IMG/VR virus record: IMGVR_UViG_3300017565_000017
Coordinates: 128,779 to 192,778 of that record
From: a virus
Taxonomy: Duplodnaviria; Heunggongvirae; Uroviricota; Caudoviricetes
Reading direction: 5' to 3' (one strand)
Length of the DNA stretch: 64,000 nucleotides
The notes under the pieces were generated by a model. The model made no database searches and had not been told where the DNA came from. It saw nothing but the letters and a program-made list of their open reading frames with translations. A program made the translations under genes and the position numbers. Below, in pieces: positions 1 through 35,749 of this stretch. The number at the start of each line of letters is the position of its first letter. Position 1 is the stretch's first letter.

Positions 1-163
1 AAACGTGGGGAACGCCGGTAATGCGGCTATCGTCACCCGCCAAACCGTAGTCCCAGCTTTTCAAGTCGTAGACGATATCACCGACCTTAACACTTGCGTT
101 GGCAGCGTCAGCTCGTGTGACGACGTAAGACTTCGGCACCCAAGTGCTTTTGGACTCAGACAT
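1..163 (-). CDS. hypothetical protein, 3' truncated by window edge
   Basis: Hand translation MSESKSTWVPKSYVVTRADAANASVKVGDIVYDLKSWDYGLAGDDSRITGVPHV; start overlaps upstream stop; frame open to position 1. Confidence 0.6.
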   Translation of the reverse strand, partial: MSESKSTWVPKSYVVTRADAANASVKVGDIVYDLKSWDYGLAGDDSRITGVPHV

Positions 164-674
164 TGCCTGCTCCAACGCCCGAGAACGTGAGGTTGCCTTC
201 ACGGATAGCCGCCGCCTCCTGGGACAGAATCTGGCGCAGGAACGCCGACGGGATAAGCCCCTGGCGGCGAGCTTCCGCCTCCAACAGGTCGTATTCCGTC
301 TTGGACATACGGAAGCTCACGGTCTCGAGATTGAGCGCCTTGTCCACAGCTTCTGCGTCCTTGGCCGAAGCCACACGCAGCGTGTCGAGACGGATCACGT
401 GAACTATCTCGGAGTCCGGCTGGTTGGATACCGAGTAGTATTCGCCTTGCTCGAAGGCCACACGCACAGCGGTATCCGTCCAGCGCATCACCACACCTTC
501 CGAACGCCAGATATTTTCACCCGTGGCCGGGTCTACCATGGACTGTTGACGCAACGTCACCAGCTTCTGGCGCAGCTTACCTGCGAGTTCGTCGTGGGAA
601 CCATATTCCGGCTGTTCCTTGAGGTCGACAAGGCTCAGAGCCTCCAACTGCAACTTTAGAGTATCTGCAAGCAT
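156..674 (-). CDS. hypothetical protein with C-terminal ribbon-helix-helix-like DNA-binding segment
   Basis: VSFRMSKTEYDLLEAEARRQGLIPSAFLRQIL fits the RHH/CopG pattern. Confidence 0.6.
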   Translation of the reverse strand: MLADTLKLQLEALSLVDLKEQPEYGSHDELAGKLRQKLVTLRQQSMVDPATGENIWRSEGVVMRWTDTAVRVAFEQGEYYSVSNQPDSEIVHVIRLDTLRVASAKDAEAVDKALNLETVSFRMSKTEYDLLEAEARRQGLIPSAFLRQILSQEAAAIREGNLTFSGVGAGNV

Positions 675-685
675 GGGGTATCCTT

Positions 686-761
686 TGGAGGCCTAGGTGG
701 GACTCGAACCCACGACCCGGGAATTTAGAGTTCCCTGCTCTGCCAACTGAGCTACTAGGCC
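686..761 (-). tRNA. amber suppressor tRNA, anticodon CUA
   Basis: 76-nt canonical cloverleaf: GGCCTAG TA GCTC AGTTGGCA GAGC A GGGAA CT-CTA-AA TTCCC GGGTC GTGGG TTCGAGT CCCAC CTAGGCC T CCA; all four stems pair; CCA encoded. Confidence 0.95.
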
Positions 762-1072
762 AAATGACCGACGTAAATGTGCCGGTGGTTAGGGTCATAA
801 TACATTTCACTGAACCGCGAATCGAGCTGAGCCCTCAAGGGCGAACCACATTTCGCAGTACATAGCAGATAGACACCAGTTTCGGATTGCTCACCGGGTT
901 CAAGTTGGCGACCACGCTTTACACGGAGGCGACGTACCTCCGAGTTAGAATCGTAGGACGCGCACAAATCTGCTACTAGCCGTGAAAACGTGAGGCGGAT
1001 CAACTTATCGCCCCTCACAACACCCCAAACTCGGTTGAATTTCGGGCGCTTGAATTCGCAAACCTAAGACAT
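755..1072 (-). CDS. candidate amber-readthrough ORF (ATG-TCT-TAG-then 102 sense codons) ending inside the suppressor tRNA
   Basis: SD AGGAG (1081-1085), 8-nt spacer, ATG at 1072, TAG at 1066-1064, then open in frame to TAG TAG at 757-752. Confidence 0.5.
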
Positions 1073-1115
1073 GGTGTAATCTCCTAATGTAGCGGCCAGG
1101 GTAGGCCGTGGGGTA

Positions 1116-1144
1116 ATTATAGCCCTGTACGGGGGCCAGGGCAA
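1116..1144 (-). promoter_or_regulatory. sigma70-type promoter for amber ORF/tRNA
   Basis: TTGCCC-17 nt-TATAAT. Confidence 0.75.
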
Positions 1145-1147
1145 GCC

Positions 1148-1345
1148 CTATTTAAAGCGGGTAAGGCTCGGGAGGGCGGCTAGTCGCTGAGCTTTTTCTT
1201 CTGCGGTAAAGAGGTGAATACGTGACATCCGCATAGAGCTGGATTGTAGTGGAATTCGCTCATACACGGCGTTGCGCGCAGAACGTGCTTTTCGCCGATA
1301 GGCTTTCCACGTCGAGTGCTTATGACGAGCATGGCGCTGCTTCAT
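1148..1345 (-). CDS. small basic hypothetical protein
   Basis: ORF coupled to upstream gene (ATGA overlap); N-terminus MKQRHARHK. Confidence 0.6.
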   Translation of the reverse strand: MKQRHARHKHSTWKAYRRKARSARNAVYERIPLQSSSMRMSRIHLFTAEEKAQRLAALPSLTRFK

Positions 1346-2209: not shown

Positions 2210-2428
2210 CTAGCGCCGCAAGCTCTGGACAATACGGTCCCAATCCTCACGGGGGAACCTGGAATGGAATTCATCGTCCAAACGCTTCCATTCCTTGTCC
2301 ACTTTGGTCTGGAGTTCCTTACGGTCCTTGGGGCTTTTGGCTTTGTCCAATTCCTCAAGGAGTTCGTAGAAGGCGCAACCCTGGCCGATAGTCGTACCCT
2401 TATACTGTCTGGATTTCTTGCCGGACAT
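2210..2428 (-). CDS. hypothetical protein (start re-assigned to MSGKKS)
   Basis: GAGGA SD 5 nt before ATG at 2428; ends TAG. Confidence 0.55.
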   Translation of the reverse strand: MSGKKSRQYKGTTIGQGCAFYELLEELDKAKSPKDRKELQTKVDKEWKRLDDEFHSRFPREDWDRIVQSLRR

Positions 2429-3008
2429 AACCATCCTCACGATTGCGAACGTTCTCGTGCATACGGGGCTTGCGATCACGTAGCATCGCAATAACCTCAT
2501 CGTGGTTCCACGGCAACATCAAGTTGTCAGGGCGGTTGTCCACACCAACATCGAACATGCGCCATTCGGGGAACCGAATCACGTGGCCGTGGCTGTGACC
2601 ATGTAGGTGGTAAGCCCCGTAGTGAGCGCCATCCCACTCGTAGATGGGAAAGTGGCAGTACACCATGTGGTCCCGACCGATCGAATTGTTGACAATAAGC
2701 GGAATGTGTACGTTCTCGAACAGTTCGTACAGGTAACGGTTCCGCTTAATGACCTTATCGTGATTGCCCGGAACGAGCTCGATCTTGCCTTGGAGGCGCT
2801 TGACCACCGCCTCAATTTGTTGGGGATTACCGAAGGAGAAGTCGCCAAGGAACCAGATAGTGTCCTCGGGCTTTACCACGGAATTCCAGGCTTCGATCAG
2901 GAGCTCGCCCATTTCCTCCACAGTTTCGCCCCGGCGCGTCGCCCGAGCGAACTTGAGGATGTTGTTGTGGTCAAAGTGTGTATCTGACGTGTACCACGTA
3001 TTAGCCAT
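2400..3008 (-). CDS. calcineurin-like metallophosphoesterase
   Basis: Motifs SDTHFDH, LGDF, GNHD, HFP, HGHSHG. Confidence 0.9.
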   Translation of the reverse strand: MANTWYTSDTHFDHNNILKFARATRRGETVEEMGELLIEAWNSVVKPEDTIWFLGDFSFGNPQQIEAVVKRLQGKIELVPGNHDKVIKRNRYLYELFENVHIPLIVNNSIGRDHMVYCHFPIYEWDGAHYGAYHLHGHSHGHVIRFPEWRMFDVGVDNRPDNLMLPWNHDEVIAMLRDRKPRMHENVRNREDGYVRQEIQTV

Positions 3009-4443
3009 CGTTATAACCTAATTGTGAATAGACTTGATCCACAGACTGCCTCAGGACCCACACGCGCTGCTCACTGTCCGTTAAGGACGTGAGCGCAGCA
3101 TTTAGCGGAGTACCTTTAGCCATCATTTGGTAGAGAGGCATCAGGTCTTCGCCATAGGCGTTGGAAAGCGCAGCCGTATCACATATGATTCTATTTACGT
3201 TTTGGGGTTCGGTACGACCAATCCGCTTAATAAGCGCATAGTAGCGAGACTTCATCTTGATTAGACGTCCGGTTTCCGGATCCTGGACCACAAAACCCTC
3301 GTGACGGCAGCGCTTCAGTTCCTGACGGAGATCACCCACCAGAGCCTTGCTCGTTCCCAACAGCTCCGCATTCTGTCGGTGAGGACGAAGTGCTATAGGG
3401 GTTGCCCCACTAGCTTCAACTACAATGTGTGGGTCCGTAGGGTCGCAAATCTCAAAGAGCCACGTACATAGACCTTCCGATTTGGCTTGGATACCCTCCA
3501 GATGCTCTTTCGCCATATCTACAAAGCGCGAATCCATAGAGCCTGTGGTAGAGAACAGAGGACCGTACTTAGGATGATCCGTATACGCGGCCATGAATCC
3601 GTTGACCTTGCGAGCGTAAGTAACGCACTGGTCATCCCGGAAGCGCACTACGGGCAAAATACCCAGCGCTTCCCCCTCGGCTGCCAGCTTCGTAAACGGA
3701 TGCACTACAATGTTCCAGTTCTCGTCCACCACAAGACCACGCATTTCGATAGCCGCGTAATCCCAGAGGTTGCGGTACATGCAATCGTGTGTGTACTTCA
3801 GGATGCGCAGGCCCGGATAGTTCTTAACTTGACGCACACTGACAAGCATACGATTGGTGTCCACCCACGCTTTGAGCTGGGCCGGGTCGTAAACATTGAA
3901 TTCGGGACCGGCTACAACAGACCGCACCTTTTCAAAGCCAATGTCGTCTGGAACCCACTGTACGTCTGCGTAATAACGGCGCAGGTCCGAAACATTGATC
4001 TTGGAATGCTGTTCGCGCACAGAGTCTTCGGGGACAGCTTTGTCCCCTCGGCCTACCTGACGAGCGATACACTCGTCGAGCGGCGTATTGACGACAATCG
4101 CCCTCAGCTCGTACCCATACTGATACTTGGCGTTCACATACTTCATGCGGCGCGCGGGCGTGAGGTTGGTGGAGTCTGCGATAATGCCGACACCGGAACG
4201 CACCAGATTGGCTAAGAATGTCTTGGCGTACTGGCCGTACTCGCGGTCATTCTCGGAGCAGTATCGGAACGCGTCCCGTGCGTCCGGAGTGCGCCCTGTG
4301 CGCTTCACATAGAACTCAGCGCGGAGGTCATCATGCGAATACACCTTGTAATCCGGGTGCTGCTCCAGCAGCTTCTGGCGAATCGTTGACTTACCAGAAC
4401 CGGCTACCCCGATCAATACAATGATCTCTTTACTCATGGTCAA
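3001..4443 (-). CDS. polynucleotide kinase (AAA_33 P-loop) fused to Rnl1-type RNA ligase
   Basis: N-terminal GVAGSGKST, D-x-x-R and DSTNL; C-terminal nucleotidyltransferase motifs KVNG (I), LFEI (III), EGFVV (IV), KMK (V). Confidence 0.85.
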   Translation of the reverse strand: MTMSKEIIVLIGVAGSGKSTIRQKLLEQHPDYKVYSHDDLRAEFYVKRTGRTPDARDAFRYCSENDREYGQYAKTFLANLVRSGVGIIADSTNLTPARRMKYVNAKYQYGYELRAIVVNTPLDECIARQVGRGDKAVPEDSVREQHSKINVSDLRRYYADVQWVPDDIGFEKVRSVVAGPEFNVYDPAQLKAWVDTNRMLVSVRQVKNYPGLRILKYTHDCMYRNLWDYAAIEMRGLVVDENWNIVVHPFTKLAAEGEALGILPVVRFRDDQCVTYARKVNGFMAAYTDHPKYGPLFSTTGSMDSRFVDMAKEHLEGIQAKSEGLCTWLFEICDPTDPHIVVEASGATPIALRPHRQNAELLGTSKALVGDLRQELKRCRHEGFVVQDPETGRLIKMKSRYYALIKRIGRTEPQNVNRIICDTAALSNAYGEDLMPLYQMMAKGTPLNAALTSLTDSEQRVWVLRQSVDQVYSQLGYNDG

Positions 4444-4694: not shown

Positions 4695-5072
4695 TTATTT
4701 GGGGTCTAGAAGAGCCCGCATAGCAAGCGTCGGGTCCGTAGCCTTTGCAATAGGCTCCTCTTCGATGGGTCCGTAATGAATGGGATTCACCCGATATTCC
4801 ACACGAACAGCCGAGCCGTGATTGGCAGTGCTACGACGGCGCTCACGCGTGTTCATGGTCTGAACCCAGGATTCGGCGCGTTTCAACGTCTCGAAGTCCT
4901 TGTGGTGCTCCCACACTGGAGTGCGCCCAGTCTGGACGACGCGCCACTGCACAGAGAAGTTCTTGGGCTCGTGTCGTACGAATTTAGGTTGCTTGATGTC
5001 CTCTTCCACCGGCGTCGCTCTTTGATCGCGCGCCCAGGTCGACGGACCCCACCAACTACCCGACTTACTCAT
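4695..5072 (-). CDS. hypothetical protein
   Basis: GGAG SD then ATG (MSKSGSWW). Confidence 0.6.
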   Translation of the reverse strand: MSKSGSWWGPSTWARDQRATPVEEDIKQPKFVRHEPKNFSVQWRVVQTGRTPVWEHHKDFETLKRAESWVQTMNTRERRRSTANHGSAVRVEYRVNPIHYGPIEEEPIAKATDPTLAMRALLDPK

Positions 5073-35674: not shown

Positions 35675-35749
35675 TGGTGGACCCGGTGTGACTTGAACAC
35701 ACACTCTTGGAATTATGAGTTCCCTGCTTCACCTTTAAGCTACAGGTCC
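35675..35749 (-). tRNA. tRNA with CAU anticodon (elongator; Ile2-like or Met)
   Basis: GGACCTG TA GCTT AAAGGTG AAGC A GGGAA CT-CAT-AA TTCCA AGAGT GTGTG TTCAAGT CACAC CGGGTCC A CCA; G1-C72 so not an initiator; C4-G69 and C5-G68 as in Ile2. Confidence 0.9.

Follow-up and report, generated by a model that had tools for sequence, protein, structure and literature searches.

An orphan amber tRNA was described in the Xanthomonas phage XacN1, where an in silico search for C-terminal extensions gave no target (PMC5852040). Another is present in RsoM2USA, a Ralstonia jumbo phage using the standard code (PMC8504454), and a tRNA-Sup is annotated in the record of Serratia phage BF. The presence of an amber tRNA in a jumbo phage that terminates at TAG has by itself already been published. 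The orphan tRNA-Sup(CUA) of jumbo phages resembles the one studied here in its type I cloverleaf, in its association with a large tRNA cluster and in the retention of TAG as a stop. The tRNAs of BF and of Xanthomonas phage Xoo-sp13 are about 80% identical to it. In contrast with XacN1, the candidate target is an N-terminal amber codon in an uncalled neighbour gene and not a C-terminal extension. In phages that recode stops (code 15/4), suppressor tRNAs also license genes with in-frame stops, and regulation was proposed (bioRxiv 10.1101/2021.08.26.457843). Many late and lysis genes are recoded in those phages, which are mostly low-GC gut phages, whereas the present case concerns one gene and one codon at 53% GC, with interchangeable keys that include four-base ones.

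Other systems use a special tRNA to control translation. In Streptomyces, the bldA tRNA-Leu(UAA) gates TTA-containing genes. As at the present locus, one tRNA is required for genes with a rare codon near the start, but bldA reads a sense codon, serves a many-gene chromosomal regulon, has no co-located client and shows no key switching. tRNA-Pyl and tRNA-Sec are special tRNAs for a few specific in-frame stops in standard-code genomes. Unlike these cases, the phage genome has no PylRS, its amber tRNA has no Pyl architecture and nothing points to a requirement for a special residue. The enlarged anticodon loops of sufD, sufJ and engineered quadruplet tRNAs restore the +1 frame. Those found in the relatives L087, L101, L105 and L112 would do the same. 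In contrast with the laboratory frameshift suppressors, these tRNAs are natural and paired with a client gene, and the tRNA described here is a plain triplet amber reader. Finally, in prfB autoregulation a stop codon near the start serves as sensor.

A literature search, with subscription journals thinly covered, found no description of amber-gated genes or of natural quadruplet or frameshift tRNAs in phages. A dedicated client, swappable keys and a stop codon inside the tRNA were likewise not found in the literature searched. The locus offers a concrete candidate answer to a published puzzle, namely why standard-code phages retain suppressor tRNAs without a known target.

The window, that is, the whole stretch of 64,000 nucleotides analysed here, belongs to a record of 242,859 bases with 53% GC and 26 tRNA genes. 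The terminase is 46% identical to that of Achromobacter phage Motura and 41% identical to that of Ralstonia phage RSL1. The phage is related to RSL1 and Motura and uses the standard genetic code. The features of the locus are collected in Table 1.

Table 1. Features of the tRNA(CUA) locus (window coordinates)
Feature	Position	Strand	Remark
tRNA gene, anticodon CUA (728-726)	686..761	minus	type I cloverleaf, U73, encoded CCA
Candidate amber-gated gene, 105 codons	755..1072	minus	directly upstream of the tRNA; uncharacterised phage family
Gate codon TAG, codon 3 (ATG TCT TAG GTT)	1064..1066	minus	same in contig X7 and in L089-L091
Shine-Dalgarno AGGAG, 8 nt ahead of ATG	1081..1085	minus	
Sigma-70-type promoter TTGCCC-17-TATAAT	1116..1144	minus	
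Tandem TAG TAG stop of the gated gene	752..757	minus	tRNA nucleotides 5-10
Weak NikA-like ribbon-helix-helix gene	156..674	minus	below Pfam cut-off; next in likely transcript

The CUA tRNA is the first gene of a 25-gene tRNA cluster. ARAGORN called the 76-nt tRNA with anticodon CTA on the minus strand at the position given by an earlier sequence-only reading. Rfam model RF00005 matches it with 68.7 bits (E 7e-13) and the minimum-energy structure is a full cloverleaf. The pairs G1-C72, G2-C71 and C3-G70, the U73 discriminator and the encoded CCA are all as that reading described them. The molecule conforms to the canonical type I pattern (7/4/5/5, D-loop GG, T-loop UUC, U33, purine 37, CCA). 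The tRNA is not a sequencing error, being unchanged in assembled contigs, as distinct from raw reads, of two independent studies. The 52-kb contig X7, from an independent wastewater study (depth 70), shows 13 differences over window 100-1168, none of which falls within the tRNA or the start codons ahead of it. Contig X11, from a manure study, spans the tRNA with a single difference located outside it.

The hallmarks of tRNA-Pyl are a 1-nt linker, a small D-loop without GG, a 6-bp anticodon stem, a 3-nt variable loop and G73. tRNA(CUA) has a 2-nt linker, an 8-nt D-loop with GG, a 5-bp stem, a 5-nt variable loop and U73, in agreement with the earlier view that its fold is not that of tRNA-Pyl. 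A pyrrolysine reading was ruled out, as the PylRS profile TIGR02367 has no match in the phage genome.

ARAGORN's label for this tRNA is set by the anticodon. The hint towards Cys or Gly that had been drawn from U73 is weak. Among the bacterial identity sets (PMC9976931 Table 1), that of tRNA-Cys is present at the acceptor end (U73, G2-C71 and C3-G70), with its other elements absent (CUA instead of GCA, G15:C48 instead of the E. coli G15:G48). The tRNA-Gly set (U73, G1-C72, C2-G71, G3-C70 and C35-C36) is matched at U73 and G1-C72 only. Amber tRNAs with U35 are frequently charged with Gln or Lys (PMC9976931). Cys is the best guess for the residue that the window copy would insert, and Gln or Lys are the alternatives. 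Viral contigs scanned for the tRNA pattern yielded 70 distinct related CUA tRNAs. Their acceptor stems differ and position 73 is A in 28, G in 27, U in 12 and C in 3, so that U73 was dropped as a conserved signal. In the three homologous modules closest to the window's, the partner tRNA has A73. The nature of the residue probably matters little because the gate lies in a variable N-terminal position, acceptor ends vary and the closest partner tRNAs carry A73. Outside the window, the discriminator is A73 in the phage's own tRNA-Gly and U73 in its initiator-type tRNA (genome 124112-124885, minus strand). Thus, the discriminators of this phage depart from E. coli rules.

The frame directly upstream of the tRNA reads ATG TCT TAG, then 102 sense codons, then TAG TAG. 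After this tandem stop, the next in-frame stop is the TAA found in the tRNA anticodon loop (727-725). The 243-kb genome has a single free site with the arrangement SD-ATG-NNN-TAG-long frame, the one abutting the tRNA. One other, partly free match to this build corresponds to the fixed TAG at positions 8-10 of a tRNA-Arg. The promoter match is by itself not above chance (1 found, 1.3 expected), and the homologous locus L083 keeps TTGCCC-17-TATACT. Gene callers begin the gene at GTG 1018 (codon 19), thereby dropping the first conserved strand, and this short form has no evident Shine-Dalgarno sequence. Codons 4-18 are conserved and contain the first predicted strand; there is no alternative start codon ahead of codon 19. 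Compared with its L083 counterpart, the gene shows 35 synonymous and 18 non-synonymous codon changes, and 45 of the 67 differences are at third positions. As judged from the sequences, it is under purifying selection. The NikA-like gene begins 11 nt past the tRNA and is a possible operon regulator. Upstream of the module (window 2400-4443, minus strand) lie phosphoesterase and polynucleotide kinase/RNA ligase genes of the tRNA-repair type. The kinase/ligase gene is 2 kb upstream, and similar genes are found upstream in L083 and L086.

Homologues of the gated product are 54-85% identical to it. The family has 125 representatives at 50% clustering, a few of which are repeat-protein artefacts. 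A profile search gave no Pfam family. The phrog_29342 profile (function not assigned) matches the gated protein weakly and 63 of 106 family members. Structure work used the natural homologues P0003 and P0004. The predicted model of P0003 (85% identical to the window protein, pLDDT 94.9) shows two strand-strand-helix-strand repeats. Its first strand corresponds to codons 13-20, mostly ahead of GTG codon 19, the first alternative start. Therefore, the full protein would need the amber codon to be read. Searches by PDB sequence, Foldseek PDB, VIA-align, ESM Atlas and BFVD gave nothing significant beyond unnamed phage proteins, which does not by itself establish a new fold; the best VIA structure match has Z 4.3 and rmsd 1.3 over 35 aligned residues.

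A survey of 27 family loci revealed that 25 are interrupted within 7 codons of the start. A matching tRNA was found in 19. The UAG/CUA pair occurs in the window, in L106, L107, L092 and L113, and in the cultured Klebsiella phages KP2025/KP13-26 and Acinetobacter phages KARL-1, Acj9, ZZ1 and 313. It is also found in Pseudomonas phage Astolliot, Synechococcus phage BUCT-ZZ01 and Alishewanella phage Slickus01, the last with a miniature tRNA identified by eye. L084 and L085 use a UGA/UCA pair. Four further loci have a start codon displaced by one base from the frame, next to a tRNA whose 9-nt loop carries four central bases complementary to the junction. These pairs are CAUU/AAUG in Myxococcus phage Mx1 (L101) and in L112, CGGU/ACCG in L105 and CGAU/GUCG, with one wobble, in L087. 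Skipping the four-base junction restores the whole frame in all four. The sequences fit either a reading of four bases at once or a reading of three followed by a slip. The UAG, UGA, CGGU and CGAU keys all lie within one supported clade that contains the window's gene. Among these relatives, sequence comparison shows that codon and anticodon change together.

The base after the gate stop is a purine in 20 of 21 loci, which are not independent, versus 32 of 54 ordinary TAG ends. A purine after the stop is a context favouring suppression. The gene's stop falls within the tRNA in 9 loci, which belong to the window's clade and include the cultured Klebsiella phages. In most of the distant family members, the gene does not overlap the tRNA. 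For five interrupted loci (L095, L097, L104, L108 and L110), mostly on short or cut contigs, the DNA examined contains no matching tRNA. In L083 the UAG is in frame, but the tRNA has a 9-nt anticodon loop and is called Arg(CCU) by ARAGORN. In L083 and L084 an in-frame ATG is found four codons past the gate. Two members, L109 and L111, are ungated; one of the two comes after an amber-gated PTH2-like gene.

Several minor features were noted in these loci. In L104 (near 4992) and L108 (near 481) the order is ATG NNN stop ATG, with a start right after the gate that may represent an escape from the lock; the L104 gate is TAA and no overlapping tRNA is seen there. The miniature CUA tRNA-like gene of Slickus01 (L114, about 4848-4918) is unannotated, lies directly upstream of the gated gene and is not picked up by ARAGORN or Rfam. 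Further tRNAs with 8-nt anticodon loops (GUCG and UUGU) are found in L119 (3269-3341, minus strand) and L109 (8616-8692).

A second survey covered 81 loci picked by the CUA tRNA pattern alone. Sites with the arrangement SD-ATG-(1-6 codons)-stop-long frame were found 21 times with TAG, 4 times with TGA and 3 times with TAA. Many of the 21 TAG sites look PTH2-like, Serratia BF among them. None of the 81 loci carries the window's gated-gene family, which would therefore be one client family among several. In BF (L002, near 2423) and in L063 (near 190), the PTH2-like gene has TAG at codon 4; in BF this gene is unannotated and lies about 3.6 kb ahead of the annotated tRNA-Sup. Both families meet in Mx1 (L101, 2120-2963). 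There, a PTH2-like gene lies directly upstream of a window-family gene, both require +1 at CATT and share the same CAUU key, and an unannotated tRNA with loop AGU-AAUG-AC follows the two genes. An amber-gated PTH2 was considered in the window's own genome and rejected, as this gene has its own ATG after TAG AAA (genome 119601-120011). A frame of 72 codons, in phase with PTH2 and ending TAG AAA ATG, lies ahead of it (L082, genome 119601-120233, minus strand). Readthrough at this TAG would fuse the two, and the upstream part has no family match.

The selective amber readthrough suggested by the sequence-only reading is thus supported, with the gene directly upstream as candidate target. On sequence evidence, the gene is real, its early stop is conserved and changes in codon and anticodon are matched. 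We infer that the module is expressed, that a host synthetase charges the tRNA and that readthrough takes place in vivo. We consider it likely that tRNA(CUA) serves as a dedicated key, opening a translational lock on one gene, and not as an agent of timed genome-wide readthrough. A single promoter would give one transcript with the small gene first and the tRNA behind it. Without the tRNA, ribosomes would initiate at the ATG, halt at codon 3 and release a dipeptide. With mature tRNA(CUA) charged by the host, some ribosomes would decode UAG and produce a protein of 104 residues.

The overlap may add a further level of control. If RNase P cuts at tRNA +1, the message left over would end two bases into a codon, without a stop, and a ribosome at the gene's stop would have to unfold the acceptor stem. 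Because the stop lies inside the tRNA, protein and tRNA would not be obtainable from one transcript, which could cause a delay and a negative feedback on the suppressor level. This feedback, a prediction drawn from established RNase P and tmRNA biology, is put forward with less assurance than the decoding step. Since most of the distant members have no overlap, it would concern the overlapping subfamily only. The lock may serve for timing, to keep a harmful product from being made, or as a sensor of tRNA damage. In its widest form, the proposal is a self-contained, self-limiting codon lock, in which one co-transcribed gene that ends inside the tRNA depends for its translation on this private key, be it an amber, opal or four-base tRNA. 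Maturation and protein synthesis would compete on each transcript, giving a regulated switch or a sensor of tRNA status, and keys would diversify between related phages. We advance this complete scheme tentatively, as a possibility.

The tRNA could alternatively mediate general or timed amber readthrough, extending or fusing many phage or host proteins, possibly as an early step toward code 15. Recoding does go together with suppressor tRNAs, which have been proposed to come first (bioRxiv 10.1101/2021.08.26.457843), and three family loci (L093, L094 and L098), whose members have two internal TAG codons, lie in apparently TAG-recoded genomes. Against this explanation, our own simple gene caller gives 351 genes ending in TAA (185), TGA (112) or TAG (54), and opening TAG leaves the coding density at 0.869. 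The earlier statement that the genome is not globally recoded is therefore borne out, and the seven stops on which it relied (1148, 2210, 5553, 13635, 18577, 41780 and 51998) are all TAG on the minus strand. In-frame junctions at TAG ends are not enriched (8/54 versus 34/297, p=0.49). Together with the single free gated site, this gives no support to a timed readthrough, whether in late genes or elsewhere. The junction with two annotated partners links separate families, a head-tail connector and a major tail protein. On these three grounds, global or late-gene TAG recoding was rejected. Profile searches of the phage genome found no release factor and none of the five synthetase families searched (Pyl, Glx, Cys, Asp-Asn-Lys and Trp-Tyr). 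In relatives, UGA or four-base keys do the same job. General readthrough is, in our opinion, unlikely. About 15% of the phage genes stop at TAG, so a strong suppressor should be costly, which counts against the dedicated lock.

Another explanation shares the decoding step with the dedicated lock and differs in purpose alone: with a suppressor already present, the tolerant N-terminus of a neighbouring gene acquired a stop by drift, which made the tRNA needed, as a selfish or neutral lock-in without regulatory purpose. Ungated members, members with an ATG after the stop, the interchangeable keys and the position of the gate in a variable region would all fit such a history. However, the same two families, the window's and the PTH2-like one, are struck repeatedly, in every case within codons 2-7, and gates are re-formed with new keys instead of disappearing. 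A selfish or neutral lock-in appears rather unlikely. It is very unlikely that the tRNA is defective or an uncharged decoy, with translation of the upstream frame starting at the internal GTG or relying on basal leakage past the stop. The short form (P0002) is indeed what gene callers annotate, and acceptor identity elements vary among related tRNAs. Yet an exact codon-anticodon match over five different keys would be unexpected for a decoy, the short form lacks the conserved strand and an evident Shine-Dalgarno sequence, and the tRNA is a clean cloverleaf with CCA.

The dedicated lock could be tested with a 460-nt cassette and with the cultured Klebsiella phages KP2025, KP13-26 and phi1_175008. 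Acinetobacter phages Acj9, ZZ1 and KARL-1, Pseudomonas phage Astolliot and Myxococcus phage Mx1 are other cultured candidates. The analysis also brings to light a gene family that annotation truncated or missed, and the natural tRNAs for amber, opal or four-base codons would be useful in expanding the genetic code.

Scanning viral contigs with single proteins gave no close relatives. Two other tRNA genes were noted. Xoo-sp13 has a 96-nt tRNA-like gene (L001, 3034-3129) whose variable region is enlarged; like the CUA tRNA close to it, this gene is unannotated. In the window, a lone tRNA(CAU) lies outside the cluster (35675-35749, minus strand) and its anticodon arm is much like the CUA tRNA's. 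In its longest frame, the topoisomerase II large-subunit gene begins within this tRNA.
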